A stretch of DNA of 63,535 bases from Phoronis australis (taxonomy: Eukaryota > Animalia > Phoronida): the NCBI GenBank assembly GCA_002633005.1, contig NMRA01000367.1, positions 43,818-107,352 on the forward strand. Reading direction: 5' to 3'. The notes under the pieces were generated by a model, which was not told the origin of the DNA, ran no database searches, and worked only from the letters and a program-made list of their open reading frames with translations. The position numbers and the translations under genes are program-made. This document shows positions 4,320 through 50,383 of this stretch, piece after piece. Within the stretch, counting starts at the first letter, position 1; every line of letters starts with the position of its first letter.

Positions 4320-4320
4320 N

Positions 4321-4445
4321 GGCAAACACCGTCCACTGACTCACAAACACGGGAACGGACTCACAAAACACGATCCACGCACCCAAATACACGGGACACG
4401 GACTCATATTCACGAGGAAACACGGTTAACGGACCGCCAAACACG
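4321..4445 (+). repeat. Left TIR of element A (truncated by gap)
   Basis: Inverted match to 15929-16053; repeated ACACGG/GACTC motifs continue to ~4490. Confidence 0.9.
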
Positions 4446-4796
4446 ATCCACGCCGATAAAGCATGCCATAAACACGGGACACGGACTCATCGCCTTCCTA
4501 GGTCAGCCTCAAGATGGCGTTAATCTGCTTAGCGATCAGCGCTCTCTTGAGGCTTGCGGACGAGGATGCTTCCTAAGTAAATAGCGCGAAATAGTGACAA
4601 TAACTACGCAGAAAGTGAATTGATTAATCTTCAACTATTTGGCAATACCTTCACTTAAAAAGCTTGATTTTAATAAAAAAATACAAAATGAGCTAACTTT
4701 CATATAAGACAAATATTTCAAGTCATATGATGCTATAATCCTTTTCTATGTTCTTTTTAATGCGCATTGACATTATTGTAAACAGGCATAAACAGC

Positions 4797-6257
4797 ATGG
4801 CGAGCGTGAACAACGAAAAGATATTACCAGAAGCCTTTACTCAAGAGTTCTTTTCCATTTTAAACGAAACACGTAAGTTTTTACATCATGTTTGTTAATT
4901 CAATCGATCGCAAGTTTGGTGTCTGCGTGAAATTCATTGAAATTGCAGCATGTTCAATAACTCTTGATTTCTATAAACAATGACAAGTGAGTCGTGAAAT
5001 GCAAAAATTCCGGGAAAATATGTCAGCTGATCTCTTGTGGATCGGCGTCTGTCACGGATTTACTGGTACTGCAAGCAAGTACTCTTAACATCACATATTG
5101 CAAGTGGCTACTCTACCGTTAATATTTATGCAGCTCTTACTTTGCTGTATGTGTATGATCACTCAGAACTTTTTTTTTCAGCAGACAGTGTTATGCAAGT
5201 AGAAACCCGTGATCTAGAAAGAGGTAAGCAGTCCTGATAACTTTTTAGTGCTACTAATGTTCCCAACGACAGAAACCTTCAACTAAACAAAAGTTGTAGG
5301 TCTCGTAATTTATTGTTGTTTAAAAAACCGGTAATTGCACTTGATTTCTCTAAAGGTTTGGTATCCCAGGCAACATGACATAGTAGGTTAGGGCAAAAGC
5401 AGCGGAAATACTTGCAATAAATACACTAAATTAGGAAATGAATGCTTATAAAGATCTTTATATTGTATTGTATTTTTCAGTAGACAACGTGACACAACAT
5501 GACATTAGCCATTCTACTGAACAGCCCCCAGCACCCCACACAGACACAATTGCAGGTAAGACAACAGTTCACCATGGTCAACTTCCTAAAGTTTGCCTTT
5601 GGAATTCTGTTCAATGTCTCAAGTTTTGTGCAATTCAAAAAGGGCTATACCACTCAAATAGTACCTATGATAAGGTGGTGAATTGCTAATGTTGTGCTTT
5701 ACATTTCAGCCAACTTAGACTGTGAATTTTGTGAGAAGTCCTTTAGCTGTAGAAGCTCTCTGAACAGGCACAAGAGAGTGCACATCAACGCTCAAGGATA
5801 CAGTTGCAATGAATGTGAAATGAAATTCCACACACAAGTCAAAGTCGACGACCACAACCGAACGGTGCATGGTGCACCCAAATTACTCTGTGGTCGTTGT
5901 CCAAAGAAATTCATGACTGTTGACGGAATACGTGAGCACCAACACCTCCACTCACCAACAAAATACTATTGTCCAACATGCGGCATGGATTTCAATACAA
6001 AAAGAAATTTATCACGCCACATCTCCGCCCACACTCCACAACTGAAGTGCAAGACTTGTGACTGCAGCTTCATGACAAGGCAGCACTTGGAGTGCCATGT
6101 CTTGGCAATGCACACCAATACTGCCTCTTTCAAGTGTGACAAGTGCAGTTTTTCTACAAAGCATTTGCGGTCCATTCAGCGTCATGCACTTGGCCACGCT
6201 GAAACAAGTGCTTGTGTTCAAAGTGTGGGAAAGGATTTAAACGAAAGGAGTATGTAA
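4797..6257 (+). CDS. Spliced multi-C2H2 zinc-finger gene carried by element A (exons 4797-4872, 5182-5223, 5481-5555, 5710-6257)
   Basis: GT-AG phase-1 introns join in frame; six C2H2 fingers; a seventh finger (CSKCGKGFKRKEYVNKHERRC) lies in another frame after ~6205. Confidence 0.85.
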
Positions 6258-9200
6258 ATAAGCATGAGCGAAGATGTAAAGGAAAAGAGGAGACTTGGAG
6301 TGTGGAAGTGAAAGTAGCGATTGTGTAAATACCTGTTTTGTGTTATAAATATCCATTTTGTTAGTATCTATACTCAAGTGTACAGTAGGCTAGATTAGAT
6401 CAGAGTTATGTTGATTGCTATAGTTTATAAACATATTGAAGATATTACACGTTTTTGTTATGAATACTTATATGGCTGCTGATGTGTATGGTTTTAAAAC
6501 TTAAGACAATTCTACATTTTCAGTGGAGGTATCTGCCATTACACTTTGGACCATTTTCACTTTCCAATTGAAATATATTCTAATGTAAACCTTGCATTTA
6601 CCGGGGTACCTGATAATCCAATACTCTTTTTTGACACATCTCATTCTTAAAAACATTTGGCAGTCTTTAACTATTCACATCGTTGCTTAAATCTAATTAA
6701 TTTGACCAAGCGACCACAGAGATGAGGAATTGGCGTGCAAGTTCCAGTTGAATGAAACAATTTATTATTGTTGAACTCGTGTTGTCAATCATAGGTACAT
6801 TGTATATAAATCTTGAACTAGCATGGAAATAAATCACAAACATTTCTGGTGTACATGCAACCTGTTGACCTAATCTACTGACCTTTTGAACATAGCATAA
6901 AGATTTCGGACCAACCAGTCCAAAAAACTAACTAGAATGTCCCAAAATGTGAAGAAAGGGCCACTTCCATAACTTGCATATTCCAGAAGACCTCAAAAAC
7001 AACTATTCAAGTACATCATAATGATTGTAATCACTTAAGTATATTAGGCGTTGTTGAACTAGATAGTTCCATTCGTACAAGGGGGTTAAGTTCCCCTTCC
7101 TTGACCTTGTGATATGTCCGTACTCCAGTAACTCCTTTGGCTGGGTCATGAAGGCCTGAGATCCCGGTTGGTTTTTTGGGAACACGACGTCTTCTGTGAC
7201 GGCTGTCAAATAAATGATCCTGCAAATGAGTAACATAATTAATCTTTCTTTATACTTTCAGCCAAACGCATCTTCCTGAAAGCATAATGTCGGACACATG
7301 AGCAACTATCATTGTCAGGATAACTCCTTACAAACTGGTTGTAATTAAAACTGTACAGTACACTGTACCAAAAAACATTTAAGTGATGGTGGCAGAATGC
7401 AGAAGCAAGTTGCATAGATAAATTCAAATTTGTTGTGCTATGAGATGGTAATACACCACTTGTCTTGCTATACAAAACATTTTGTTGAAAAAATGTTAGT
7501 GCTTGTGCATGCTTACATTGCAGGTGGTATTTCAGTAAAAAAAGTTGTTCGTGAAACACCCTTGAAATATATTGAATGAATTATCCTTTTTTGTTTGTGT
7601 TCGGAAAAAAGGCGATTTAGTGTGGATGAAGTTGAGAATAACCCTTGGATGTGGTAGAGGGCCGACATCCTGTTCCAGGACTTTCTCGGGGTATACTGGA
7701 GCACACGACAGGTGTAGGGGAAATTCCCTAAAAAGCAAAAAAAATGATTTAAATTACCACATTCAAGCGTTTGCGAAGTTATAATTTGTGCAAGCCCTCA
7801 TGGCACAATGGAACAGCTATCTCAAACTCTATTTTTGCCACTGAGATCAATTTAACAAAAAATAAGCTATACAATGTTTCTTTCCATTTCTAAAACTAAA
7901 AATATCAATGGCAACCATATACACACTTATACACAACTTCAACAATACTAACCTTCCTGGACCTAATCGAATGAGCGCCTCCCCAATTACTTTTCCCAGA
8001 TAAGTCTCTAGTGTTACACAGCTCGGGGTTCCATTGTGGGATGAATTGCAGAGTAGCTAAGCTTGAGAACAACCCCTCACAAGGCTGGGTTCCAATTGCT
8101 CGTTGATTGTAAGTTCCTCTCCTAGCAAGGCCATACAGTAAAATATCACCATCAATAGCTGCTATAAGCGACTCCCACAGCTGTTTTGGATAACCTCCAA
8201 CGTAGCTTCCAACAGGGGGGAAGGAGTGAACGTCTACCAGATTAGTCAACATCTTTCGGTACCTGGAAACACGACAAAATATAATAAATGAAAACGCCCT
8301 ATCTACTTCCACATAACATGCTATGCTCGCCATGAACTAGCCAAACAAAAATACTAGTTGAAACAAAGTCCAATTCTGCAAGACAAGGGAAAGTCAAAAA
8401 GCTTACTTAAGTTTCATTTCACAGCGACGTAAAGCAGGAATTGCAGCATCATCACACGCCATGAACCACTCTCTAACCTGAAAGGAAAAAGGAAATCGTT
8501 AGTTGACTTCATATGTACATTGAACAGCATTATATGATGGTTTAGAACAGAAATTGTGCCTGACTCGCCATCACATAAGTTAACATTCGGTAACTTGTTG
8601 CTTTGGTGCAGCCCAAAGGCATTTGCATAATTTGTCACCTTTAGTGTTGTGTCGTGATGACTAAGCAAGGATCGATCATGGCATGAAGAACAATGATTTC
8701 CAAGACTGAAAAGATTGAAAAATTAAAAACTGTTTAATTTAGTTTTGCATGATGGAAAAACTGTTAAATTTCTATGTAGATTCACCAAGAATTGACCTGT
8801 TGGTTTTTCTTCCAAAGATGACTGAAGCTACAGAAGTGTACAGGAAGTGACTTTACTGTTACTACGTATGTTAATTGTTTTTTGTGTTAACTCTAAGAAA
8901 ATTGTTTTACCAGTTGCCTCATGACGTGAAGTCTTCTTAACTTAAGTACCGAAAACACCAAAAAAGTAGTCGCAACCTTTAAAGTAGGAAAAAAGTACTC
9001 ACCCTTTCGCACAGTTCAGCACTCCCAGCATAGCCTTTGTTCTTTAATTGCTGCTGAACATCTTCACCAAATGTCAGCAAACTGAGATCAGTAGATTGCA
9101 TATCCAGGTTGTCCTCCATCATCCCCACTTTAAGTCGAGTCTTTCTTTCACTAGCAACTTCCAAAAATTCACATCGTTTACCACCAGCTAGATCACGCTT

Positions 9201-10559
9201 ATTCAATGCAGCCCGAGTTCTTGTCAGTAAATGGGTGGTGTCAATAAGACGAACTTCTAACTGGTTTCTGTTATTGACATACTGAGGACAATAATGCCGC
9301 TGCAGTGGATAGAATTCTTCCAGTCCTGCAATTATGATTTTCGTCAAAGGGGAGAGTCGCATTCCAGTCTGAGACTACTTCTATGAATCTCCACTCAGCA
9401 AAACTGATGTTTAATGCAGCCTTTGGATAGCTTTTCCCCATCACCACTTTCGTAGCCATTGCCATGAGTTTCGGGGGTGTTTTTCTCTTACTTGTCAGGT
9501 AGTCCCCAGACAGTCGTAATTTTTCAGCAATGGTACTGACAAGTGTAATTTTTTTTGATTGCCAATCACAACATGTAGCGCATTGCCTACAGTAACCAGC
9601 TCTGGCACTGTTAAACGTTGTAGAGAAGGAATATTGGTGAACAAAAAGGACATCTAATCATGTGATTTTTCTCGATACTTCATGTGAGACTGCTTAAGTG
9701 CCAAAATTGCATGAAGAACACCTGTTGTGTCTACTCCGTCTTCCGCATCTTGTTCTTGCTGCTGTTGGGTAGTTGCTGTGTCCATGGCAGCCAGCATATA
9801 TATTATCTCCTCTGCAGCATTATTATCGGTGGATATTACTTGTGGAGTCAGTCGAGGCTCATCATAGGTGGAGTTTGCGCCACAGGCAGGCAATCTGTGA
9901 ATCGCAGAACTTGGCAAGCAAAAATTATCCTTGAGTTTAACAGTGAAACTTCCCCACTCTCTGGTAATGACGTAACATTCATAGTTCAGTGTCTTGAACT
10001 CGACCAGCATTTTTTGCTTAGACAGGCTGCGTACTTCTTGCCAAAAGTCTCTCTGAAGTTGTGTCAATGTCATTGGTCTCCCACGTAAATCCCTACTTAA
10101 AAAATTAACAAAGGCTCCGTCGAAACTAACAACTGGTACATGAATGCCATCAGCATAGAGTTTATCTAGAAGATCCTCGAGGATTTTACGCATAATCTCG
10201 ATGGGCAAACTGTACCCTTTGAGCATGTAGCAGACGGGTGCTCCGAGGATTCTGCTCTCCTGGTTAACCCTATCAAGATCACTTAAGACAAAAGCAACCA
10301 TTTCGGTGGCCTTGTGCCGCAACAATTCATAGGTCTTCTTTAAGTTTTCTTCAGCTACATCAAACACTGTACAGTCCAATTCGCATGGTGTCAGGTCAAG
10401 GTCAGGTGGTTGGATGTATGCATCAGTAGGTACACGATACTGTTGTACCTGTTTACTTTCTCTGCAAACATGAACCGACTTCAGTTCAGCTACAAGCTGG
10501 CAATTGTCCTTTACCCTCTGTTTGATCAGGGCGAACAAGATCTTTGACGTTGGTGTTAA

Positions 10560-11160
10560 ACATATGGGTTTCTTGGCATCTTTCTTGTAAATGAGGCCAA
10601 TCTCGGAAACAGCCATATCCCAAACTTCCTGGTCAAATTCAATTCGAAACACTCTTGTCGTGTGTTCACGGAAGGAAACGAACAATGCACTGGTTGACTG
10701 AGAGTGCCACCACCTCGGCTTGAATTTGAAGATAGTATTGCGCTGGCACTGTAACATGATGTCTCTCCAAAAAGTACGGACATTTTATCTCTAAGGCAGC
10801 GATCGGAACACCATTTTCTTTCAAACAACCATCTGGAGAACTTATGGTGGACACTCCATCCAGGGTCATGGGTATGCCGCCTACTTCAAATAACTCCCAC
10901 TTTGGTTCAAAAACAGGCAAATACTTTGTGCACACAGTTGCAATTGCACAATTTTCATGTAAATTCCCATGCTCCATTGCCTGCCGAACTTCAAGTGACG
11001 GTTCTTCACGCGCTTTACCTAGAATCTGTTGTTCAAAAAACGCCTTCTGCTTTTTCAGTGAATCTCCGCCTAGTGCCTCAAATAGCCTGCTACCAGTGAG
11101 GGTGGCTTTACTCCTTGCCTCTAACCAAGCACTTGATCTCTGCTTTATGAAGGCAAGTCC
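10560..11160 (-). other. YqaJ / lambda-exonuclease-like PD-(D/E)XK domain within the transposase
   Basis: KQRSSAWLEAR...LTGS...AMEHGNLHE..A...SSPDG...LEIKCP...YYLQIQAE...FVSF. Confidence 0.9.
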
Positions 11161-13399
11161 TTTTGACATCACAGTTTGAAGGTCAGTCACATCCTCAATC
11201 ACGTCACTAACTGGTGGTAATGTGGCACTCCGTCAATAGAAATTGGCGGATCATGGCACCAGTTGCTAAACTTGGAATTTAAAACTGCAGCGGTTTGACA
11301 TAACTTGTCAATGATGGTGAGGTTTGTTACAAGTACTTCACGAATCTCCACTAGTGTAGCTATAAGTAAACTGATGACAAAAGAAAACCTGGAATTTCTG
11401 TAGTCTGGTCCACTCTCTTTTTGCATCTTTTCCAAGGCATACTCTTTTTTGATTGCATAGCTTCCAACTCTGCTCTTCGTTCACCCAAGTTGCTGACAAC
11501 ATCTTTGATGGCAGATGAGAGCACAGAGTCTGTGTTAGAGTTGCCCAAGCCTATGAATAGTGATCCAGCAGACTGCACAAACTCTATTTCCTTATCATGA
11601 CGGTTTCGTCTTTCTTGCAGCGTAGTATCGGGGTCATAACCTAATAAGTTGACATCCCCACGGTTTCCTCGTAATCCTGGAGCCACTTTCTTTCCATCAA
11701 GAGAGAGACAAACGCTTGTGTTTTGAGCACGAACAGCTACTTGCTGAGCTATTGATTGGCAATATCCAGGAGACAATTTCTCTGGCCAGTTGATACCAAG
11801 GGGTCTATAATTTCTCACGATGGCTTCATCTGGTATGGCAAGAATTAGGTTTAAGCCAGCATGGTTCAGTTGCTGATCTTGAGAGTTCCCTCTTATCAGT
11901 GCCCCCTCTCCACGCCACCCAGTGAGATAACGAAGAGGGGCTGTCCCCCATTTTATTTGGAAAAGCTTCCAAAAAGTTTTTGTTGTAGTCGAATACCTCA
12001 TGGCTCGTATACATGGAAGGTTTAACTGCTGCAATGTTTCTAAAATAATGTGAAATGTCACACTTGATGCTGTAAGTATGTCTTTGTCAAGTGCCATTAA
12101 CAGTCGATGAACTAAAAGCTTGTTCTTGTCTGAAGCTGCGCATACTTTAAGAAAGAATCTTGTCATTTCATCTGACCTGCAACTGAAAAAATCTAAATGT
12201 ACTTTGATAAAAGCTATAATTCAATATGTAAAGAACCAGCTCATAAATAAAAAAACTATCATATAAGCAATCAACTACTACTCCATCAGCAAGCCAAGAC
12301 CGGTCCTATCGTCTGGAGGAATAACTGATAACTTAAAATTTAAGTAGGTAAAAAGTATCTGCCAAAAATTTACCATAAGTTTTGAAAAAAATTTCAACGA
12401 ATATTTCAGAAAGTATGAAGACTCTTCACTAAAAAATAAAGTTGTCTTCAAACAGATTTCAAAAGAGGGAAGTCCTTTGAAAACATAAGAAAAAATGTTT
12501 ACCTCCCCTTGGAAAAGCTGTTTTCCTTCTCTGTCTTGATGAAGTCTGTATATTGTGTACTGACACCGCAGTTTGATTCTACACTGCATCAAAAGAAGAT
12601 CCTTTCTCACTAAAAACATCAATATCAATTTCAATTTACAAAGAACTTATTGTTGTAAACTGTACTTGTGAACATAAAAAATGAAATTAGGATATCACAC
12701 AACAGACTATTGTTGTTTTCATTTTTATTTAATCATCCCTGCTTAATGGAAGAAAATGTAAATGAATTCATGATGTCTGGTTTCATAAATTTTACACATG
12801 GTTAACAGTGAAATTGTAGTGAGCTTTACACGTAACGTATAGACACATAAGAAAACAACAGGTCGAACAAAAAATTCCTGCTGCCTGAAATGCTGGATGG
12901 AAGATTAAATACCAGAAAACCAAGTCGCTTCACTTAACAAAGCTTTGGAAGTAAAGCAATTTCAGTGAAAAGTGTGCAAAAGGCCTCTATAGCAAGAACG
13001 TAGGCTTGCTGAGAATGAACATTGCATTTAAGCACAGTGTATATCGCAATGGACTTATAGGGGGCCTAACTAACGTGCTCCCATTTCTGTTTTGCAGATT
13101 TTAACACCACTGTCCCACCATTATTATTTTTATTTAAAAAATCATCAAGTATGTACGTTTTTGTCGTATCTTGGAAAGGTTGTGGCTTGTTCACTGAGAT
13201 TGGTGAAACACATGGGGAAACTAATGAGCTCTGTTTCCTGTAAAAAAAGCAGCAAAATACAAGAAAAATGAAAAACCAAATGATCGCCGCACAAAAATTT
13301 CATGATAAACCAACGTTTCGGCTATTCGTTAGACATAATCAGGATATTTACATAAGACAACAAGTGCCAAGATACATCTCAGGTGACATCCATGAAGTG

Positions 13400-13615
13400 A
13401 AGTGAGAGATGTTTTCAAACCTCTTCGCAAACTTTCCAGCATGCTATATATGCAAACTGAAGTCACCCATCACTTTACTGAACTAGAGCAATGTTGTTTA
13501 TGAGGTTGAATTTGACAACTGTAAGGAATTCTATATCGGACTCACACAGAGACGCCTCTGTGACAGGCTGAAAGAACATCACACCTCAGAGAAAAGCAAC
13601 ATATATAGACATGTA
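13400..13615 (+). mobile_element. Penelope-like retroelement fragment (GIY-YIG endonuclease) in an intron of element A
   Basis: SNVVYEVEFDNCKEFYIGLTQRRLCDRLKEH...SNIYRH. Confidence 0.75.
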
Positions 13616-14970
13616 TGATGCCAATTTGTTTGCACAAAGTGCTGCCTGTTGAGAATTTGACTAGCCAGTCAGAAACGCCGGTGTAAAATAATTTCCCGAG
13701 GAAAATTAAGTGTTACCGCGTGCTGGCTATTGACCACCTAGCAGCACACAGGGAACCAGCGAGAGTTCAGTCTCCCGTTCAGTAACTCTAGGACCTCGCT
13801 AAAAAGCAAGACTTCGCAGGATTACGTGAGATGTTGCTGTGTATTTTAAATAAGAGCACCTGACTTTGGCTAGATCAAAGCTAGGTCAAATCGTAGGTCC
13901 TATCGTTAATGAACACAAGCCCAGTATGAAACAAGGGTTACCTCCATCAGTTTACTAAAAAAGAGGTTCAACTTAAAATTGAAGTTCCTTTCGAAGAACG
14001 GGAAGTATTCATAAACACATCCTACATTTATTGATTTTTCCTTATTCCAAAGAAATAATAGGTTACCTCTTACTGTTGATGAAACTGGGATAGTCATCTT
14101 CAAGCTCATGTTCAAAATGCGATTTTTCATTGGTTGTTGTTCCAGAAGTTGATGCATCACTGAAAATAACAAGACTGTCAATCATGCTGTGTTGATTTCC
14201 CGCCAAGAACTAACAGTGCTGTATTTTCACACACATCACAGCTTTATTACAAATCATAGACGTTCATCATAATGTGGAACGGAAGGTTAGCATGCATATG
14301 TTTCCAACCTAAATGAAAATCGGTTGACAAAAGTGTTATCAAACTTCGTGAATTCTTATAACCCACTCAGTTGGTACGTCCCACATGAAATATTGCAAAA
14401 TGGTCATATACCAAATTCAGTAAACAAGTTTTATTCTTCATTCGAATATAAATTGTAAAACAGTTTTTAAAAAATATGTATTTTATGTTGTTGTACACTC
14501 AATAGTGGACTTGACATGTTCTCCTTCCATTAACAAATTTGAATAAGCAAGCATGGTCTTACACTTGTGCATTAATGATTAAAGAATGTGCTGCTTCATT
14601 TATAACTTGAAAAGACCACAGACAATCACAAAAAGTAGAATTAAGAGCTCATAGAGAGGGCTGTGTAAGGCTGACTTTTTCAGAAATACTTAAATAGTGT
14701 GTATACTATCATCTGCTGAAAATTTACCTATCAAACATGTAAGTAGATCAATCTGGGTTTAAGTCTAATACTGGACCACGCAGTTACTTGAACCTGTGGT
14801 CAATTCCACCTGGTAATAATAGTCCTTGGATAATGAAGTATATATATTGTTTTGAGGAAATTGATTTGATAGGCTAATACTGATACGTACTGTGCACTCT
14901 GTGACATCAACCAGTATATTCAGCCAGTGCAAGTTAGGTAAAAATGGTAAAATTGAAAGACTGAGGTTGA

Positions 14971-15249
14971 GGGGTCAACGCTTGATTTCGAGTCTGTTCG
15001 TACCCTTACTCGCACCCAAGTTCCTTGTCTGCATGTGATCCAACCAGTAATTGTGTGATCAACTCAACAATTTTCATTTTCTAAATAACAGGTAATATTG
15101 AGTCATTTTGCACATATATATTTGGCAGGATTGATTGATTTTAAATATCGTATGCCAAAAATCAACTATTGAAACACTTTTGAAACTTGATCTGGGTAAG
15201 AGTTGGCTTGGGTAAGAGTTGACTTGGGTTCGAAGTGACCTGTTTCCCC
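14971..15249. mobile_element. Small MITE-like insertion in the first intron of the element A transposase
   Basis: Inverted sub-terminal repeats (cgtaccc/cgcacccaag versus ttgggtaagagtt..ttgggttcgaagtgacc); related fragment near 18106-18150. Confidence 0.4.
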
Positions 15250-15928
15250 AAGTCCAGGTTGAAACTAAATTAATAAAGTTTAATGTGATAAATATGACTT
15301 ACGTTACGTCTTGTCCACATTTACAGCACAAAGAAAATGGCCTTGAATTAGTTGAGTGACTACAATTGAGTAGGCCTGGGTTGTCTTCGTCTCCACATGC
15401 ACCACATTTTACACATAACTCGCCGGCTATATGCGTCAAATCACAGCCAGTTAGAGATGATCGCCAAGTCACTCCACAGCGTTCACAAAAACCATTTTCT
15501 GACGCGGCGAGAAATGAATGCGAATGAGAAGAATGGTGATATTCTTTTTCCAAATTACGTTTTGCCTGGCTGACAGATCTTTGGGGTGTCGAAAAATGTT
15601 TTCTTGGAGCAGATCCGAAAGGTGAAATAGGTGAAAGACAGGGTCTTTTCGAGTTAGAACGGTCCATGTCATTTTGAGAATAAAGCGCGCGAAGAAAGCA
15701 GGCGATAACTGAAGTCGCTAGTCTCACTGTCAAAATTAAGATTTGATGTTACAAACAGGTTTGGAAAGTCAATAAATTGCAGAACAAATAATTAGTTTCA
15801 ATAATGTTTATTGTTTCTAAATCATAACAATTACATCACAGTACAGACAAAAATAACATCAAAAATATATTTAATCTCGCACCCATTACACAGCTGTCAA
15901 CGCTGAAGTTGACATTTTGTCTGTTGAC

Positions 15929-16109
15929 CGTGTTTGGCGGTCCATTAACCGTGTTTCCTCGTGAATATGAGTCCGTGTCCCGTGTATTTGGGTGCGTGAA
16001 TCGTGTTTTGTGAGTCCGTTCCCGTGTTTGGGAGTCAGTGGACGGTGTTTGCCGGTCCGTGAGTCGTGTTCATGCGTCCGTTCCCGTGTTTTTGAGTCTG
16101 TTGACCGTG
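15929..16109 (-). repeat. Right TIR of element A (~180 bp, terminus 5'-CACGGTCAACAG)
   Basis: Inverted match to the left TIR; periodic CCGTGT motifs; followed by TAG and Gypsy sequence. Confidence 0.9.
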
Positions 16110-34019: not shown

Positions 34020-34199
34020 CCAAGCACCTTGTTTCTGCAGAACAGGTCATCACCTCACGACCTTGACCCCAGCAGTAATTTCCTCCATAATAAGGAACTG
34101 GGTCGTCGCAAGTTCGGTTACGGAAGACACTACCGGTACCAGAATCGCAACTGGCGTTACATTTGCTCCAGGCAGCCCACTCCGACCACCCACCATCAA
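34020..34199 (-). CDS. Host gene exon: thrombospondin type-1 (TSP1) domain
   Basis: 180-nt phase 1-1 exon: VDGGWSEWAAWSKCNASCDSGTGSVFRNRTCDDPVPYYGGNYCWGQGREVMTCSAETRCL (absent from the ORF track). Confidence 0.95.
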
Positions 34200-34239
34200 C
34201 TAATGTAATAAGGGATGATAAGTGTACAAATTACAACTT

Positions 34240-34302
34240 CACTTTGGCAGATGTCAGATTGTTTGTAAACCGTTTACCAATAATCTGACATCTGCCAAAG
34301 TG
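34240..34302. repeat. 63-bp near-perfect hairpin (CAC...GTG)
   Basis: 31-bp arms with 2 mismatches and a 1-nt spacer. Confidence 0.9.
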
Positions 34303-38160: not shown

Positions 38161-38314
38161 CACGGGTGAGAAACAACATGACTGCCGGTCCTCCAAATCG
38201 GACCGGCTCACCCAAAAAAGGACCTCCGGGAATCAAATGGGACCACAGCACCAGAAAATGGGACTGACACCCCTAAAAACATGACTGCCCCACCGGGGAC
38301 TGAACATGACCTCC
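38161..38314 (+). repeat. Left TIR of element B
   Basis: Imperfect inverted match to 50211-50383; GGACC/GACT motif recurring about every 20-22 bp. Confidence 0.85.
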
Positions 38315-38693
38315 AGACAAAATATTATTATCAATGGTTGTGGGTCATACTGGTTACGACGATAGTTTACCCGAGAACAAGTTATCCTCGATCGCATTTT
38401 TGACTTGACTAAAACGTTACATTAAAAAACTGAAATTAATTTGTTTTACAACTGACTCAGTGGATAAAATTATGTTTATACAGACAAAAATGCGCAACAT
38501 GCTTGGTTTTAAGTTAGATTTATTAAATCTAAATGTTGTTATGGTCTTTGGGCCAGAGGGTAGCGGCGCGCCATTTTCATCGAAAAAAAATAGTTTGCTT
38601 AATTTTTTACTATGTCCGTTGTTTTATAACGCCTGAACTGTTGAATGCTATTGCCCGAGGGAGGCTCGTAGTAGGGGAAGCAAAGGGCATCAA

Positions 38694-41600
38694 TTGTTTT
38701 CACCCATTTTGCCGCTAGTTCAACACGTTCCAGTGAAGTTTCCGTCGTCAACGCCAGCATCAAAGCGGACTCTATTCAACGAGCCATCTGAATCCTATGC
38801 CGATAAGTCCCACTCGCATTCATTGCTGGGCTTTGGAATATGTGAACGCTGCGGTCATCAGCAGCAAGGTCGGGCTGATCAATCGAACTCCAGTCACTCT
38901 CATTCCATGTTAGTGGGAATCTGTGACCGTTGTGGACTCACGGCAGAACCAGAAGATGAGTCGAGTAATTCCAGGACCATGACCATAGCCTCAGGCATAG
39001 GTCACAACGTCAGAGTTCACTGCAGTCATTCAGAAACTCCTGACTGGGAGCTGTGTTTCACATGCGGGTCAAGAAATACAGATCAACCTGAGTGAGTTTG
39101 CTCCGCATATTTTGTTCTAGCAGTGCTTGTGCTAATGTTTTTGAATTGATTCGGACCAACTACAGTACTTAAAAATATAAATTTATACTTACTTTTCTCC
39201 ATTTTAATGACATTAAAATTCATTACCTTATTCTGTTATGACGCCCTTATTTACTGAAATTTGAAATATATATTTTAAATTTATTTTAATATCAGATCAT
39301 TTTGTTAATTTCTTTATAGTTTTATTGATTCTGAATAAATTATACCACTCCACCGTGATGAGTATGGAAGACCTCCATGGTCTCCAGCACCTGTCCTGTC
39401 TCAAGTGGAGAATGGGTAATTAAGTCACATGCAGAGAATTTAACTCTAAGTGCATTCAATCAAGCTAGTAAACATCATCTAACCTAAAGGATGGTTTTAT
39501 GGCCAATGACTTTGTATATTTGAGTAAACGTGATTGTTTCACATAGCGACCGAATGCAGTACATCAGGTGAGTTCATGGTTAAAGACACTGTACATGTAT
39601 TTGTAAGGCAATGTGCACCTTGTCGCAATTTGATGTGTAATCACACAATTGACTGATGTTAAAACATTTACAAAAGGTAATGAGCCAAGACTTAAAGAAT
39701 TATGGTCATTACTATTTAAGTTAGCGTGTGCAATAAATTACAATTAAATTGAACTGTGTACTTGATTAATTTCAAATCATTTATTTGTTTTTATTTCATA
39801 ACATTGAGCATGACACCTTTCCCTCTCAAGGAATGAATGCACGTGGGAACAATGGGAACATGACCTTTGACTTGTAAGTAACTGATAAAAGTATTAAGAG
39901 TTACTGAAGAACACATACTATCCTGGTATAATGTTCATTAGATTTGTTTAATTCGTTTAATTCGTGTTGTTTCTCGTTAAAATAGTTAAGAACATATTTT
40001 GGTGATTTTAAATGCTCATTGTCTTGTAAAACCATAATTATCTTTCATCAAATTCAATGTTGTTTAAAGTGCAATATTCCATATTTCACATTAGATTTGC
40101 CAAATCTTTGCGTTACTTTTGATTTCTAAGTTGCACGATTCATTTACAGAGATGGTGAAGATGATCATGTACACTTGAAGATCTGTGAGCCGTTGACTCG
40201 TGTACTTCAGTTTAGCAGTGCACCACAACTAGTTGTCCAAGTCCTGTTGGCACTGGATTCTGGAAATCTCGATACATCATGCCTCACGAATAACATCATC
40301 CTTGAGACTGTTCTGCAACTGAATCTGGACTCTCTGTGGAACATGCGCTATATGAAGTTGTTTCAGCTCAAATTTGGAAGCGCACCCTTGCGGGTTTTGG
40401 CTGGGTGGAAGTGTTTTGGACAGTTAAGCCAATATGATGCCAACAGTAGTATTGATCCATCATTGATGGATGCTATCATAGCTGTTCCAGATCCTCGTTC
40501 CTTGGAAGATCACATTCCAGATCAGAACTGGCCTGATAAGCCGACTCGTGGTTATTGCAAGGAAGTGGCAAAAATTGTTTCCAAGTCAGCAGCAGGTACT
40601 AGCCTCTGTCTGGCGTTTGACGCAAAAAAGTTGCCCCCGGGAATAAAAGGAGACCGTGAGGACATCAGTCTTATAGGCCACGATACATGAAAGACATTGC
40701 TACAAACAAAAGAAGACCACGCTGAAGAACTTGCCCTAGCTTAATCAGCCAGGTCAAACTATAGCTCTGCCAGTGGCTGACATCATCCAAATGTTATCGA
40801 TACGACGGTTGCAGTTACTGGAAACACTACAGAAAAAGAAATATGCGGTAGAAAAGTTAAGAAAAGATGGTGGCCCTGATTACCGACAGTCAAAGTATTC
40901 CTTTGTGATTAGCCTGCTATTGGCAACTGTGGTCGAATTCCAGGAGGCCCCTGTGACCAACATGTCTGTTATTGATAATATGACAACTACCCTGTCATCT
41001 CAGTCAGTCAGATTGGTGGAATTTCATGACATCGATGCATTACAGTGTTCATCTGCACCTGAAGACATTGCCTTAGCACGCCACATTGAACGGAAGGGCC
41101 TCCCATTTGTGAAGCAAAGAAGTGCTGCGTGGTTTGATGTTAGAAAGGGTCATGTGACAGGAAGCCGGTTGTATGAAGCCGTGGGGGAGACACGTTATTG
41201 AATCAGAAGGCTTACTTCGATAATGTGATGAATGGTGACCATGAGACTGCAGCTACTCCAGAGGTTCGGGCTGCGATGAAACATGGGACGAGGCACAAGG
41301 GCTGTGCAACAGCAACTGTTTGCTCCAAGTTTCTCCCTTTATTTCATCACACGTCAATCTTCAAGGAAGTTGGTTGTTTTCCTATCGAATATAACAACTT
41401 CAGAGTTATCATATCACCGGACGGCTATGTGATAGATGAGAGTACCGGGTACACTGCAGCAGTGGAAAATAAGTGCCTACACTTTACACTGCAACCACAC
41501 CGGCACTTACCACCTCGCTATTACCTTAAATTCAAGGAGAAATGGTTGCATTGAACACTAGCAGCTGTCTTATCATTTGGTGTGGAAACGTGCAACGTTT

Positions 41601-44600
41601 TTGAAGTGAAATATGATGATGAAGTTTGAGAAATGGCAGTTGCAGAAGTCTTCACAATATTCAACCCAGACAGCCCTCGTCGCCCTGTATCACGATCTCC
41701 ATCATCAAAAGCTCTTAAGGCTATTAAATTGAACTGCAAAGTGAACTGCACCTTAATTGCTTGTGTCAAGTCATTTCATGTCTGTGGTATGCACGACCAG
41801 GAACCTACATCTATACAAGTTTATCCTTCTCTGAATGATATTTAGGAAAAAGCGAAACACACATGAAGAAAGTGTATCAGCTGTTGAGACAAAATGCTAC
41901 AGAGATGGTGGCGTTTGTGTTTTCCGATCTCGACCGAATAAATAGCGAAAATCGTGTTCTATGTGTGCCTGTGTGTTATTTTTAAAGGATTACAGTCTGC
42001 CAAACAGTATCATGCGTAGCATCCTAGTAGACTTACTAAACAAGTTGTGGAAGGATAGCCACTGACGATATTGAAACTACATACAGTAAGGATTGTTGGT
42101 TTGAAGTCCGTCAAACGTCAAAGAGTGTCATAATCAAAGCTTTCAGAGAAGCTGGAGCAGCTAGATATGCTTTTTCAAGACAAGGCAGTTGCTTGGTGGT
42201 TGAGTTGAAGCCTGGGGAATTGCTGCCATGATGACCAAAGAATGTGAAACATGAACTAACTCAGGAGGCACATGTATTTGTTGAGGACACGAACATGGCT
42301 GCAGGAGATTTAATGGCAAGGGCAGAAGATGCTGAGACAGATTTAAACTCAGTTGAAACAGTGGCCAACGATGAAAATACAGCAACCATATGTGCAGAAA
42401 ATGCCACAGAGGCCATTGTTTCGGTCCAATTGCATCAGTTCTGAGAAAAAAAGCATACCAGGTTCGAGGGTTACTCTCAACTAGCTTTGGAGGCGTTGTT
42501 TATAGACATGAGTATGCTCCAAAAATTTACTATTCCTGAACTGTTACAGTTATCACGGCTTTGGAATTAAGACTGCCACGAACACGGTTAAAGTGCGATT
42601 TAGTTAATGCAGTAGCATTATATAGGAGAGTTATAGCATTATAAGAGAGTTTGTGCCACGGAAACGAAGAAACCCAACGTCAATAGCCCTGCTTTGTCAA
42701 AAAGCCACTTCCAAGCTACCGAAAGTTGAGCTGAGTGCTGCCTACTGTGAGTGGGTGTTCCCATCAAAAGTAAGAGAATGGCAGAGTTCTTTGCCATTTA
42801 ACGTGCACATGACAATTCCTGGCTTAGAAGATTTCCAGTTACAGGGGTTTTACTCACATGAGTTCAGTGAGTCGAGACAACGAGCTGAAATTCGACGAAT
42901 TGATACCCCACACCTGCTTACAAGGCATAGGTCAGCAATAAATAGAGGAAACCTGGGGTCAGCTAGGAAAGGTGACTTCGTGAAAGTTGCAACTGAAATG
43001 AGAACTCCGTTGAAGATATGAATGATAGAAGACAACTTGAGTATACAGTCTACGGATTTCGCACAAATCACATTTTCGAAGGACGTTGAGAAGGAGTTGA
43101 CGCGTTTGGGTTGACTTTGTAGTGCAGACTTGTGTAAACAAGTTTGTAAGCACCTAGTTTAGCCTTCTTGGCATGATTACCTATGGCATAGGCTTAAAAA
43201 AAGCAATGTGGGATAGAAACTACTTTTTAAGTGTAAACTTAAGTTGGGAACTGTTTTCCTTCTGAACTGCGTTGCCCGAGATTTGATTGTTGATAACCTC
43301 ACAAAACTTGCATTAGACAGCTGTAGCCTTAAGAAATTATTTCAAATTATATATTTATTTGTTGCCCTTAGGTTTGTGAGTGGTTTCAAGCGTGCGATGA
43401 ACCTGGTATCCCAGCTTTATCTCGCTGTAGATTGAAACTTGAGTGAGTAGTATGTTTTTTCTCTTCTTTTTGCTTTTGCTTGAACTGGATACATTCAACA
43501 AGTTCCAGAACCAATCTTTCTGATTGCGAACACTAATTTTGTGTTAAGGTAACTAGAAACTTGAAATGCAGGTTTTTGCAGCACACCAGAGTAATTTATG
43601 TTATTGTGGATTCATTATAGTTCATCAGAACACTTGGAGTTGAGATAATATTTCTGTTGTAGCTTCCGCAAAGTATTAAATGAAAACTGTCATTAATTAA
43701 AATGATTAGTACATTGTATATATCGTTAAAAATAACAAAACTGAAACAATTTCTCAGGCCGTTTAAGACAATTTTATGAGCTATCAACATGACTTGATGT
43801 ACACAGGCATCTAAGGAAATTGATGAGCTTGGTGGATTTGACGTCATTCCAACCAACTGGTTCACACATATGTGGTTATCTTAAGGTTCTATGGGAGGCA
43901 ACAGTTGCTGTTATTGATGCTGACATTCAGCTATATGCCCTGGCCAAAAGGAGGACTGACAGCCAGAGATCTCTGGGCAGTCAGCCATGTGAGGGACTAT
44001 TCTCAAGTCTTGCAACTATGCCATCATTACATAATGGAACTCCAAGCTGTGTTGCTCAACAGACCGATCTTTGGAAAGTCTTGGGCGAAGGCATGGTCAG
44101 ACTAGATTCATCAAGGTATATGCCTTTAAAGGCGAAGGAAACCTTTTTTCATGTCATTTTTAGCAAAAATATGGTTCGTTTATTATCCTAGACATATTTT
44201 ACACTTATTTACGGCTCTTCGTAATTTAATTAATCACTCGTCGTCTACTGCGGAAGTGACGTATTGGGAGGCAAGAATTTCGCGCCAATTTCTTTTCATA
44301 TAGTCTGACTGTTAGAGCAGTCGAGTCAGTCATTGTTCTACCTCAGTTGTGATAAGTTCAATCGTCGTTTGCTTTTGCTTACGAGTCAGTCAACATGCTA
44401 CGCTGTTGCTGCGTACTGGAGTGTACTCACGTACAGAGGAAGAACTGTCCCACTTGCCCGACTGTCCCGCGACACACTCCCAATGGAGGGTGATCTGAGC
44501 ACCCAAACTGCTTACATACCGCCGTGTGACTCCCGCGCCACACACCTGGCACCTTCCAAGTAGCTCCAATACACCTCCACAATAAACTTATCAAACTTAG

Positions 44601-46275
44601 GCTCACCGATCTGTTCATTGGATGACGAACTGTCCTCTTCACCGAACTGGGCCTGTATTCACTTCCACTACTCAACATCGCTGCAGGGCTCTTTACAGGC
44701 TCTAGGCTAGAGACAACAGCATAGGGCGAATCACTGCTAGTTCCCGGAATTGCACGCAATGGGGTACGTTCGGAGGCACGGGTAACGGTAGATGAAGTGC
44801 CTCCAGTCACTGTATATTGTGGCCACAGCTCGCGAGACTTCTTGCTTCAAAAACGCACTTCTCGGGGTTGGCGACCGGGCACTGCCGGAAATATACAGCG
44901 ACGGTATGTTACCCTTCTTAAGGCGTTGTTTCGCAGGGCCCTTCATCAATTCCGCGTACATATCTCTGTCGTAATCTGACGGCAGAAAATGCTTGCCACA
45001 CTCGGTAACCCTCCATTGCTTTGTACGTTGCGTGGACGGGTTGCTCTGCGTTCTTCACATGAACGAGCTAGCCAAGTAAGGCGAAGTGTGTCATCCTTCG
45101 GAAAGCGACGCAAGGTACCCAAAGCGCGTGTGAGACGATAATGAGTACATCCCAGCACGCAGCAACAGCGTGGCATGTCGACTGTTGACTGTCTTATAAA
45201 CAAAAAAACGACTACCGAGGTAGAACAATGACTGACTCGACAGCTCTCACAGTCAGACTATAATGAAAAGAAATTGGCGCGAAACTCTTGCCTCCCAAAA
45301 CGTCACTTCCGGAGTAGAGGACGAGAAATTAATCAAATTAGAAAAAGCTGTAATTAAGTGAAAAATGTGTCTGGGATAATCAACAAACCTTTTTTGCTAA
45401 AAGTGACATGAAAAAAGGTTGCCTTCGCCTTTAAAAACATAACCATGTTCATGTCTCACATACTTCCAATATTAGGCCTTTATATGTTTTGCAAAGATCG
45501 CTATTTAATGTAAGGCTATAACAATTTGTAATATATTTGTTCCATTTTGTAGCCCCAAAAATTGTTCATGAATAAAGAAATAGGGAACAATTACATTCAT
45601 ATTACCTGTAATTATTAATATCGTTTGCAGAGATTTTTCCACTGCGATTATCTATAGCTCCAGTCTATCCAGAAAAGGTGCTTGCAGGAGATGCTGGTGT
45701 GTTACCTCTACCCCAAGCAGCTCCCACCTTCATAGATACCATCAGTATTAAGGTGTATTAGACCATTCCGTGCTACCTCATTCTTGTATAGATGAAATTT
45801 GTTATCTTACGTGATTATCTTGCTGCCATGACTGGATTTGTTTTATGCTGAATTGCTATTTGGATTATTGTGTTATTTAATTACCGCACCCATTCGGGTT
45901 AAGTTCAGGACTTTAACTCGATCAACTCAAAATCAGGGGTTGGATTTTAAACTAAACGCAATGAAACATGGGGCTTAAAAGAAGTTTGTTAAGTTTTGGG
46001 GTGGCACTTATCCAAGCCTTGGCGGTAAACCCAAATATAGGGAAACGATAAAATGATTTTGTTTTGTATTTTGGCATTTTCAGAACCGTTTGTTTGACAG
46101 TAAACACAGAAAGAGGAGGAAATCCAGAAGACCCACTGGCATTTCGAGTTTGCATGAGCCATCAAAAGGAGTCACTGGTGTAAGGTTCCATCATAAAATT
46201 AATGAAGGTGCAATGAATCCTTTGGTGAGGCTTGGTATTTCGACACGCAAATCTCTGGAAAGCTTAATTGGGTGA
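38694..46275 (+). pseudogene. Degenerate spliced P-like transposase with YqaJ domain (element B)
   Basis: Exon 1 to ~39091, large exon ~40150-43140 (CLAFDAKK, KQRSAAW, ISPDG, VENKC, IDTPHLLTRHR), then 43372-43442, 43807-44115 (SQPCEGLFSSL), 45632-45752, 46084-46275; many stops. Confidence 0.8.
44130..45430 (-). mobile_element. Kolobok-like THAP element with ~220-bp TIRs and TTAA TSD, in an intron of the element B transposase
   Basis: TTAA|aggcgaagg.aacc ... ggttgccttcgcct|TTAA; frameshifted THAP (MPRCCCVLGC..RFPKD..W / KHFLPSDY..RLKKGNIPSL) at ~44740-45177. Confidence 0.85.
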
Positions 46276-47339
46276 TTTACTTATCCACATTTTGAGTTTA
46301 CGGAACATGATTTTTCAGACTGCCTTCTTATAAGGAAGAGTGTACGTGGATGCTTGCATAGGCTATGAATCTCAAGTTTCAGTTTTTTGCTGTGTTCCAC
46401 ACCCTGTGCTGTACTCTCTTCTTAAGGAATGCACATTAAGAGAATCAAAATTAAACATTCGTGAGGTGACATGGGAGAAGCAGTAAATGACACTGATTTT
46501 TTGTTCAACACTATCATGACATCAAAGGCCTACATGAGACAACTGTCTCTAATTCGTCCTCCATAAAAGCACGTTTTGTACTTTCATGAAATTATCGTTA
46601 AGTCTTAATAGTTTCCAAGTGACTGAGCTGGTTTTAGAACTGATAGCCATGGAATACCTACATGTATGTAGCCACGAGAGTGGGGGGACACAGCATGTGT
46701 ATTGCTCGATTGAGAATCAATATGCTAATATATTTTGAAAGGTTAGCAGCAGTCTGAAAGAATTTAAAATTAAAGAGAAATTTCCTTCTTCCTCATTGAT
46801 AAAGCTTCCAGCCGTAGAAAACATTCATTTCGTTCATGATCTCCCTAGTTACATTCGATGGTAAAAATCCACTGCTTCTGTGTCAAAGAAAGTTTTGTGA
46901 CCGGTTTGATACATCAATTTTGCCAAAGCTGTTATTTTTTATGATAAGTAGCAAACAGGAAGAAGGAATGTCTCTTTAAATTAGAATTGCATTTACCTTT
47001 GAAGTGCATTTTACTACATTACTCAGTTTTGGCCGACCATAAACAATCAATGCTCAGCATTTCGCAACTCTTATCTACTATGCACTGAACTATGCTGATG
47101 AGGGTGGGGTCAAAGTAAAGTAAAACCTGGTTGAAGTAGAGCCGACAATGATGTAAAATAATGTACATGTATTAGTTGGCAACAACATTAGTGTTGCCTC
47201 GATTGAATCATTCCAGTCGGTCTTTGAAAATAAAAGTCATATGTGTGATGTTATTTTTGAAAGGTTGTCATTTTACATAGCATTGTGATAGTATGATTAA
47301 GTTTCCTTTTTATGAATAAAGCACAGCTTCAGTTTCATG

Positions 47340-47660
47340 CCTCGTCTGCTTTGAATTCATGCATACTGTGCGTCCGCAGTTTTTCTTCTCGCACTAATTG
47401 CACTGGTATGTAGTGGGTGAGTGCACCTCACTGTGTCGCTGCAACCCACTCTGTGGCGCAAAAGTACGCCGGCATACCTTGCAAGGTATTTTTTGGCCCG
47501 TGGCTTCCGCTTTCATGATCTTCACGTTCCGCTTTGCTTTAGAAGTGCCGGTGACACAGTTGGCACCGAAATGGCAACTTTCCCTCGTGTTCGTGAACGT
47601 GACGGTCCAATGCGCTGCGGTGTGTGAACTCCTTAACACAAACTGAGCAACGATGACTTT
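47340..47660 (-). pseudogene. Degenerate C2H2 zinc-finger exon of element B
   Basis: Phase-1 acceptor then CSVCVKEFTHRSALDRHVHEH, CQLCHRHF*..EDHESGSH, CKVCRRTF..GLQRHSEVHSPTTYQC; candidate upstream exons near 48140-48225 and 50083-50160. Confidence 0.8.
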
Positions 47661-48524
47661 CTGAAAATAAAAAAGACCCAAGTAAGCACAGAACAGGAAA
47701 AAATGAAGCAAATCTCAAAGATTGACTACAGAGCTGTCGGATCTGAGGTTTCCAAATTCACACTTTTTTATACAACTTACATATTGTGTCAGATCAAATA
47801 CAGTAGATTTCAAGATTGCTTACTAAGAGTGATTTTTCCTCATCGGAAACAGTTACGATACATGTACATTAAACAGTGGTTATTTAGTTAGATTTAGTTA
47901 GATTTCATTTTATTCATTTCATATAAAGTAATAGGAACCTCTTAAACACAGGAATTTATGCATAAGTCAATAAATTGCAATCTGATGGAATCTGATTTAT
48001 CCAGAGTAAGTGAGATATTATCTAGAATGGATAGTGAATGGACGTGAGACAATAATGCAAAACAATTGTAAAGGTTGACTCCATGGCATCAAAACTTACA
48101 TGAAATGTGAGGTATTGGCACAACAAGTGCTTTGGCCTCAAGTTGGTGTACATAACCACCGATTCCTCACAGCATCCTTTGATACAATTCATTGATACTG
48201 ACGCTTCTTGAACAGTGAAAGATTCTGTAAAGTAACATGTCAAATTTAGGTTAACTTGCACAAATGGTAGTAGACTGCAAGCACAGAGTTGTTAACGCAG
48301 GAATAGATATTTATTATCAGTTATTAGTAGTTATCAAAGGTGTGTTGAAATATCACTTCATACAACAGCCAGGCATTGCCGACAGAGCTTAAAAATTAGA
48401 GAGGTAACTAAAATTGGTGAAATTTTCACTGCACGTTAGTAAGTTACTGGGGGGCATCATGGCCTCTTCCGCTAACCACTAAGCATGCAGAGCACGTTTG
48501 TTACTCAATTATTGCACATAAGAA

Positions 48525-49845: not shown

Positions 49846-50210
49846 TACACCTTGAGGAAGTCAGAACTCAGTCAGGACAATGGGCTTTAATCCAACTCGA
49901 GTAACAGCACTGTCAAGGTAAGCTAAAGGCAACTCATGCTGAATAGGTCTACGTTAACAATACGTAACAATCCCATGTGTGATTTGTCACACGCTGCCGG
50001 CGGGGTATATCTATTTGGCCTAAACCTGCATTACTACAAAACCCAGTGGTACATGGATTTCATTATCACGCAAGTACATACCTGCCTCACGCAAAATGCT
50101 TAAAACACTGGAGAAACTCGACGTCCGACTTTGTCGTTGTTGGTGACTGTGCACGTACAGAGTCTAATGCAATATGCGGACCTTGTTTCAATTGCTTATA
50201 GTGGAGAGGC

Positions 50211-50383
50211 GGGAGTTATGTTTCAATCCTCGGTGGTCCTGTTTTGTGGTGGGACAGTGATGTTTTTAGGTGTGTCAGTCCCATTTTTCTGGTGCGGTGG
50301 TCCTATTTGATTCCCGGCGGTGCTGTTTTGGGTGAGTGAGTCCGATTTAACAGGACCGGCGGCCATGTTGTTACTCACCCGTG
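50211..50383 (-). repeat. Right TIR of element B
   Basis: Ends ...ttactcacccgtg at 50383. Confidence 0.85.

Follow-up and report, generated by a model that had tools for sequence, protein, structure and literature searches.

The window analysed here is a stretch of 63,535 nt of Phoronis australis DNA, in which we recognise two related transposons, called elements A and B. Element A, at positions 4321-16109, carries a transposase gene and a convergent zinc-finger gene between terminal inverted repeats (TIRs).

4320..4320, no strand: assembly gap, a single N, which takes away the left terminus and flank of element A
4321..4451, plus: left TIR, incomplete, rich in CACG(G) and GACTC units, with high depth in DNA runs
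4797..6328, plus: C2H2 zinc-finger gene (Pfam zf-C2H2, E 3.9e-12)
4797-4872, about 5185-5223, 5481-5555, 5710-6328, plus: C2H2 exons, inferred from splice signals; their lengths preserve the frame
7031..15667, minus: P-type transposase gene, broken, with 52% identity to the family protein P0001 over 1108 columns
15667-15303, about 12176-9003, 8477-8407, 8262-7953, 7727-about 7610, 7219-7031, minus: transposase exons, inferred; more small 5' exons are possible
11696..11698, minus: first catalytic Asp, DGKK (equivalent to P0001 D314 and P element D230; 63/64 rows)
10686..11190, minus: YqaJ / lambda-exonuclease domain, inserted in the core after strand 1 and before strand 2
10119..10121, minus: second catalytic Asp, FDG (equivalent to P0001 D846 and P element D303; 74/77 rows)
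9231..9242, minus: DxxH signature, DTTH (D in 71/71 and H in 71/71 rows)
8076..8078, minus: catalytic Glu, CEGLF (equivalent to P0001 E1291 and P element E531; 67/69 rows)
15923..16109, minus: right TIR, with its CACGG terminus on the minus strand

The copy of a cut-and-paste DNA transposon that element A represents is dead. Its transposase gene bears about six frameshifts and one stop, all catalytic residues being kept, and assembly error was rejected as the source of these breaks because a contig that spans 6477-13397 shows just 7 letter differences and one gap. A preliminary description of this DNA had proposed long TIRs around two genes, and indeed the arms at 4321-4451 and 15923-16053 (131 nt, 96% identity) enclose both. 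The ends CACGG...CCGTG that it gave are seen at the right (CCGTG at 16105-16109) but not at the left, where the first 56 nt are absent and the arm starts to match the right repeat at its position 57. Since the N at 4320 removes the left terminus, the target duplication of element A is unreadable and CACGG is visible at the right only. The same description had the unit split a host Gypsy integrase; both flanks are high-copy and translate to motifs that resemble those of an integrase C-terminus, but a Pfam search of the two pieces returned no match. It mentioned neither the dead state of element A nor element B. Many DNA records fuse both ends of element A with the middle absent (joints are, for example, 4574-15712, 4726-15770 and 4431-16103), and DNA-read depth is about 35,000 in the terminal bins vs 44 in the interior, values that do not measure copy number.

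As already described, the transposase gene is spliced on the minus strand, with canonical GT-AG sites and a full-length Lingula protein matched over residues 165-1429, and every motif of the series first named is present, so that the D-D-DxxH-E set is complete. The reported YqaJ/lambda exonuclease inside the transposase was likewise recovered (Pfam PF09588, E 7.5e-8); its motifs W, R, S, E, SPD, E-x-K and Q are all intact, and the nested domain is conserved across a large family. The exon at 15667-15303 encodes H-x-H...C-x2-C-G repeats. The zinc-finger gene, given earlier as a plus-strand gene of six to seven fingers tail to tail with the transposase, has six in a single frame and a seventh past a frameshift near 6200-6212. 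DNA depth over the zinc-finger region is 87-192 vs 44 in the transposase interior, hence copies of this gene may occur apart from the transposase. RNA reads cover both genes at a depth of 0-3, mostly in one orientation, which fits transposase or host-gene transcripts alike, and no spliced joint was found among the matches listed.

Element B repeats this layout in the same genome, as follows.

38161..50383, plus: element B, a second family member, with both CACGG termini, inverted repeats of about 155 nt and both junctions bridged by contigs
38700..46270, plus: transposase gene, severely damaged, with a YqaJ domain nested in it
47340..47660, minus: C2H2 exon, decayed, convergent with the element B transposase

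The transposases of A and B share 43% protein identity; that of B misses the second Asp region and has an altered exonuclease Glu. The ends of element B are identical at 29 of 32 terminal nt vs 12 of 40 outside. Within the window, its C2H2 exon was matched by the fingers of element A (tblastn, E 2e-5), and Pfam zf-C2H2 scored it at E 0.0015, below the curated cut-off. This single old copy displayed no target duplication: the test at 7-8 bp gave 1/7 and 2/8 matches, and comparison of 3-4 bp of the flanks 0/3 and 2/4. TTAA is absent at all three visible junctions of the two elements. CACGG stands at 3/3 visible termini (the right one of A and both of B), and we take it to be an instance of the P-type CANRG consensus, on which the literature searched held nothing relevant. 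RNA reads over element B differed from run to run. A scan of 25 CACGG and 44 CCGTG sites revealed no third element within the window.

A full HMMER search gave 1459 matches, and word-index protein searches none, one and two. The transposase family comprises 240 clusters at E<1e-30; names were obtained on seven of 22 clusters looked up, all from animals of five phyla, none carrying a transposase label. Judged by sequence, the transposase belongs to a large unlabelled family. At a mean identity of about 32%, the exonuclease residues E, D, E, K and Q are conserved in 93-99% of rows, as strongly as the DDE residues. All eight scored exonuclease residues are kept in 44 of the 51 complete proteins; one or more are missing in the other seven, several in five. 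Five proteins with a complete DDE set and long open frames (P0102, P0113, P0115, P0098 and P0044) have lost exonuclease residues, on at least two separate branches of trees that cover the nested-exonuclease family only, and the clade of P0102, P0113 and P0115 keeps the domain and its W/R phosphate-pocket motif, the metal ligands being gone. The spacing from first to second Asp has a median of 541 aa. PF21787 matches six of 35 proteins, at profile positions 62-134 only and after the exonuclease. THAP (PF05485) was found neither in P0001, nor in any of 35 relatives, some of whose N-termini may be incomplete, nor in the first exon of either element. The position three before the catalytic Glu, equivalent to P D528, is Leu in 41 of 51 proteins and Asp in none, and the inferred D444 column is variable; these two were compared by alignment columns, the remaining GTP-residue equivalences by motif context. 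Viral contigs yielded one distant YqaJ stretch (L002, 23%) and nothing else, prokaryote genomes no family locus, and metagenomes a single contig (L001), whose 1532-codon frame is intact.

A sequence search of solved structures matched no transposase, and kinship with P comes solely from the fold and from weak Pfam and Atlas leads (scores <0.9). The protein folded was P0030, a relative 25% identical to the window protein (pLDDT 84, pTM 0.75); a run with two sequences, at pLDDT 32, was not used. The P0030 model superposes on P transposase (6p5a) with Z 26.7 and rmsd 3.3 over 347 aligned residues across model positions 1-1137, vs Z 10.6 for Transib, 8.9 for RAG and 7.9 for Hermes, and P transposase ranked first again in an independent wide structure search. 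LHK-Exo and lambda Exo match positions 268-485 (Z 14-15, 171-186 residues), and helical-bundle matches cover 107-573. In this relative, an RNase H-like P-type core and a lambda-exonuclease fold are therefore both predicted, which supports the P-type kinship first suggested from motifs. The P-type core is predicted to close around the insertion, in which a four-helix stalk, departing after strand 1 and rejoining the core before strand 2, carries the exonuclease. Lambda Exo / LHK-Exo profile matches have E 8.6e-7 and 2.3e-4; the nested domain holds a PD-(D/E)xK active site and a 5'-phosphate pocket, its residues aligning with lambda Exo W24, R28, E85, D119 and K131, whose roles are described (PMC7496540).

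Our leading interpretation, for which we see about equal chances of being right or wrong, is a P-type transposon with a nested exonuclease that resects broken host ends after excision, the element being recopied by gap repair. Its parts differ in strength. The DDE core very probably cuts and joins as in P, and the exonuclease, almost as probably, acts on 5'-phosphate ends. That the exonuclease is an accessory, which resects donor flanks and favours homology-directed repair, raising copy number and leaving internally deleted copies, is plausible but falls somewhat short of an even chance. The DDE core would excise the element and leave broken host ends, the nested exonuclease would chew back the donor flanks, and the resected gap would be mended by homology-directed repair that copies the element back, with copy number rising and internally deleted copies being left. 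Donor breaks of P are repaired by HR or NHEJ (PMC7776569). An accessory role is suggested because the five proteins named above keep the DDE set yet lost exonuclease residues, although such proteins may be decaying rather than still mobile. Deletion derivatives occur widely among DNA transposons and are no specific sign of resection. Lambda Exo forms a ring of three subunits to act (PMC7496540); how a dimeric or tetrameric transposase could accommodate such a ring is not easy to see, which weighs against the exonuclease proposal. It is an evenly balanced question whether this transposase does without GTP, as we propose.

The exonuclease might instead act on the ends of the element itself, recessing the non-transferred strand to give a P-like long 3' overhang, or trimming the ends at the insertion site, which would leave no target duplication. 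P leaves a 17-nt staggered end, the order and mechanism of whose cleavage are reported as not known (PMC7776569), and lambda Exo generates 3' overhangs (PMC7496540). The domain also sits within the catalytic core, element B lacks a target duplication, and Leu at the D528 position together with the variable D444 column suggests that end positioning differs from P. On the contrary, an obligatory step should not vanish more than once, as it would have in the seven complete proteins lacking exonuclease residues, a processive 5' exonuclease would put the excised element at risk, and the absent duplication is known from a single old copy, so that we hold action on the element's own ends to be rather unlikely. 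Somewhat less likely still is a separate P-related group in which the nested exonuclease stands in for the GTP-dependent staggered cut and the zinc-finger protein for THAP, with insertion without duplication. The exonuclease fold could also be retained chiefly as a clamp or scaffold for donor or target DNA ends, its catalysis being incidental, as the P0102, P0113 and P0115 clade with its pocket and without metal ligands might suggest; the near-invariance of the catalytic residues across so divergent a family makes this improbable.

The role of the zinc-finger gene is similarly debatable. Its C2H2 protein could substitute for the absent THAP domain and bind the CACG repeats in the ends, a tentative proposal to which we give a little less credit than to its being captured cargo, or a host-directed regulator of one sub-lineage, in a system whose transposase itself binds the ends, through helical domains and the Cys/His repeats of its N-terminus; the latter is itself not quite an even chance. 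The H-x-H...C-x2-C-G repeats are indeed common to elements A and B, P0001 and P0154, a weak SAP-like match lies in the second insertion of P0006, the reads over element A contained no zinc-finger RNA in spliced or sense form, and the fingers of element B resemble those of A at only about 30%. However, the gene has the same position and orientation in two elements at just 43% identity, the fingers of element A are intact in a single frame, and the ends of A and B diverge past CACGG, as do their fingers. This two-gene layout was encountered in elements A and B of a single genome only. As to classification, many marine-invertebrate transposon families exist solely as Repbase entries, and the element may belong to a group already catalogued in Repbase or Dfam (of P, Kolobok-E, ISL2EU or Chapaev type), with an architecture that the papers searched do not describe. 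Chapaev, too, is typified by CAC termini (PMC4079192), but the lack of a transposase label on all seven named clusters counts against this fairly unlikely alternative.

A P-type transposase with a nested exonuclease was not found in the papers searched, Repbase and Dfam being outside that scope; the combination is new relative to this literature. Of the distinct P-related lineage first proposed, the kinship with P is supported by the predicted fold, the putative zinc-finger partner recurs convergently in the 43%-identical element B, and novelty stands for the papers searched only. Lambda-type exonucleases have been acquired repeatedly by unrelated DNA transposons (ISL2EU, KolobokE), and the literature searched held no test of why transposons carry them. 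In the present family the nuclease sits inside the catalytic core itself, in a relative of one of the most thoroughly studied transposases; with natural nuclease-dead branches as controls and intact open frames, the question becomes approachable with P-element assays. The arrangement would show that an RNase H core tolerates 470 residues inserted between strands 1 and 2, would provide a label for hundreds of animal proteins that lack annotation and are listed only as YqaJ or uncharacterised, and would be relevant to two unexplained features of P, its staggered cut and its GTP requirement.

Among known systems, lambda exonuclease and LHK-Exo (1AVQ, 3SLP, 3SYY) share the fold, profile match, phosphate pocket and catalytic residues of the nested domain, whereas they are free-standing trimeric rings accompanied by an annealase in phages, and here the domain is nested and no annealase was seen in the element. 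KolobokE, of the Kolobok superfamily, similarly unites in one protein a DDE transposase with DxxH and a nuclease resembling lambda exonuclease (PMC9587614); we did not assign our elements to it, since their nuclease is placed after the first Asp and before the second, and the three visible junctions lack a TTAA duplication. ISL2EU, of the PHIS superfamily, is a TIR element with two genes that carries YqaJ (PMC4482050), but in its second ORF, beside a Harbinger-like transposase with THAP, with GG ends and an AT duplication; YqaJ within the transposase and CACGG termini set our elements apart from it. Chapaev, of the CMC group, has 5'-CAC termini (PMC4079192) and duplications of 3-4 bp, none of which is seen in element B; despite the shared CAC we did not assign our elements to it, no Chapaev structure being among the matches and the fold matching P. 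The Drosophila P element/THAP9 (P superfamily, 6P5A) is the closest by predicted fold. From it, the family differs by about 470 more residues between strands 1 and 2 (helical stalk and exonuclease; the first-to-second Asp spacing of P is 73, D230-D303, PMC8230255), by about 300 more between the second Asp and DxxH, by the lack of a detected THAP, by Leu at the D528 position (the P GTP-binding residues compared being K385, K400, V401, S409, F443, D444, N447 and D528), and by repeat-rich ends of 130-190 nt, a second gene and no 7-8 bp duplication in the single complete copy. With P it shares the predicted fold over 347 residues, the D-D-DxxH-E order, the DxxH-to-E spacing (167 vs 192), a helical insertion that follows strand 5 and precedes the Glu helix, ends beginning with CA and internally deleted derivatives.

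The minus-strand gene of element A, the transposon at 4321-16109, matches residues 165-1429 of P0001, a full-length relative of 1435 aa from Lingula (52% identity over 1108 columns), and canonical splice sites are present where the match jumps, which bears out the spliced transposase of the preliminary description. The copy is no longer intact, with about six frameshifts plus a stop; nearly all the breaks within 6477-13397 are real, since a DNA-run contig covering that region agrees with the window but for 7 letters and 1 gap. All 15 positions scored in the family alignment are intact. The first intron region (about 13400-13900) contains a repeat of very high copy number, together with a GIY-YIG fragment (PF01541, E 2e-4). 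The convergent plus-strand C2H2 gene proposed earlier was also recovered: it has three short exons, whose lengths preserve the frame into the last exon, where six fingers are encoded, and a seventh finger lies beyond a frameshift. The two genes are arranged tail to tail, with about 700 nt between their ends.

Structure comparisons agree with the P-type kinship and with the embedded YqaJ/lambda exonuclease. The modelled relative, P0030, is only 25% identical to the window protein, to which the fold is transferred via the alignment. Its model, built with 60 sequences (pLDDT 84, pTM 0.75), is closest to the Drosophila P transposase (Z 26.7, rmsd 3.3, 347 residues, model 1-1137), with weaker matches to Transib (Z 10.6), RAG (8.9) and Hermes (7.9). 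Residues 268-485 match LHK-Exo and lambda exonuclease (Z 14-15), and a second structure search, not reliant on Foldseek, returned the same top three. The first two Asp, 73 residues apart in P (PMC8230255), are separated by a median of 541 residues in the family, and a second insertion ahead of DxxH has a median of 351 versus 36 in P. The predicted nesting of the exonuclease in a P-type core is thus well supported, and helical-bundle matches covering residues 107-573 of the model indicate that it is probably borne on a four-helix stalk, with three outgoing helices and one returning.

At E 0.001 the full HMMER search returned 1459 clusters, a number that falls to 754 at 1e-10 and to 240 at 1e-30; the analysis covers the best 150 of the 1459, and the weaker matches may include unrelated YqaJ proteins. 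Among 22 clusters looked up, the seven named ones belong to Lingula, Branchiostoma (three), Ptychodera, Owenia and Cyprideis, which represent five animal phyla, and none of the seven bears a transposase label. In 77 proteins of at least 1000 aa, counting the rows that cover each position, the core residues are kept almost throughout (first Asp 63/64, second Asp 74/77, DxxH 71/71, Glu 67/69), as are those of the exonuclease (E 68/70, D 75/77, E 74/75, K 72/76). Of 35 relatives searched with Pfam, 24 gave YqaJ and six the P-type RNase H profile, by its second half only (two of them passing the curated cut-off); none gave THAP. The exonuclease and DDE trees share many clades, including one grouping A, P0001 and element B, and across protein pairs the identities of the two parts are correlated (Spearman 0.44, 2556 non-independent pairs), a pattern that fits a single old insertion of the exonuclease. 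An intact member of 1532 codons with all motifs lies on a metagenome contig (L001:430-5028), and its transposase itself bears an N-terminal C2H2-like motif.

The repeats and the second family member are as follows.

4321-4451 and 15923-16053: inverted arms of element A, 131 nt, 96% complementary
38161-50383: element B, with CACGG at both ends and repeats of about 155 nt

The right repeat of element A extends to 16109 and terminates in CACGG on the minus strand. Short CACG(G) and GACTC units make up the ends of this element. The long repeats described as ending CACGG...CCGTG are borne out for the arms and the right terminus; the left arm begins at an assembly N (4320) and picks up the right repeat at its position 57, which leaves the left terminus and any target duplication of this copy outside the sequence. 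Both flanks are high-copy in the DNA runs. Their translations show integrase-like motifs that we take to be Gypsy-type, in line with the proposed split Gypsy integrase, but Pfam matched neither piece. Immediately to the left (2900-4100), five tandem copies of an integrase-like piece are spaced by 238 nt, and left of this array lies a separate THAP-domain ORF (2441-2863, minus; PF05485, E 1.7e-15).

Element B was found through a match of P0001 to its transposase (40226-46266, plus strand), which is 43% identical to that of element A. Its ends share 29 of 32 terminal bases versus 12 of 40 outside, contigs bridge both junctions, and a decayed C2H2 exon faces the transposase (E 2e-5, search within the window); no target duplication was seen in its flanks at lengths of 2 to 12. 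Since A and B have the two-gene layout and the CACGG terminus in common, these features predate the split of the two elements, as seen in one genome. Element B appears to sit in an intron of a likely cell-surface host gene, with scattered exons at 23374-53387 on the minus strand that give a TSP1 match (E 1e-6), a weak Ig-like match and a hydrophobic stretch followed by a tail. An intron of its transposase (about 44120-45440) carries a very high-copy nested element with long inverted ends starting TTAAAGG-like and a THAP fragment (PF05485, E 8e-4), presumably a Kolobok-like non-autonomous element. A multi-copy insert with a minus-strand PHD finger (about 47850-50050; PF00628, E 0.0018) breaks up the zinc-finger side; it has RNA reads from one strand and resembles a pogo-like transposase C-terminus.

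Summed contig depth, which is no copy number, reaches about 27,000-35,000 in the terminal bins of element A versus 44 in the transposase interior. Contigs also fuse the two ends of the element and skip its interior, at joints that include 4574-15712, 4726-15770 and 4431-16103 among the 15 covered of 74. Depth and joints together fit many non-autonomous derivatives. Several relatives are present as four to six near-identical members, each on different large contigs.

Lambda exonuclease binds the 5' phosphate via Trp24 and Arg28 and also uses Glu85, Asp119 and Lys131 (PMC7496540); all five align with conserved family positions. We scored 72 rows for retention (the 77 minus 8 truncated or redundant, plus P0154, A and B). 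The DDE set is complete in 51, of which 44 keep all eight scored exonuclease residues but seven do not, and heavy losses lie in at least two branches of the family tree, suggesting that the exonuclease is usually under selection yet not obligatory. Five relatives with a complete DDE set, long open frames and a degenerate exonuclease site (P0102, P0113, P0115, P0098, P0044) are natural controls for its role. The nuclease could produce the recessed end that P obtains by a 17-nt staggered cut, and this would suit the loss of P's D528 (Leu at the equivalent position in 41/51) and the missing target duplication of element B; however, losses beside a complete DDE set fit an essential cutting step less well than resection of the donor break. 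By such resection the exonuclease would favour homology-directed repair; P donor breaks are repaired by HR or NHEJ (PMC7776569). The finger protein is a candidate binder of the element ends because THAP was not found in the family proteins searched, a role that the N-terminal Cys/His repeats of the A/B/P0001 sub-lineage could fill instead.

In the openly searchable literature, as distinct from Repbase, Dfam and subscription papers, we found no description of the nested P-core/exonuclease architecture, to which the window contributes the anatomy of the element (ends and two genes) around the transposase. Chapaev elements are described as having CAC at their ends and duplications of 3-4 bp (PMC4079192); the visible termini of A and B likewise begin with CAC (CACGG), and in the flanks of element B no such duplication was seen. 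P-superfamily elements are described with THAP and 7-8 bp duplications (PMC3698922, PMC7776569). The element shares the P core and is predicted to work like P, but the THAP of P was not found here, and agreement on two further P features, the GTP-binding residues and the 7-8 bp duplication, is uncertain; despite its core, we therefore class it as P-related and do not place it among the canonical P elements.
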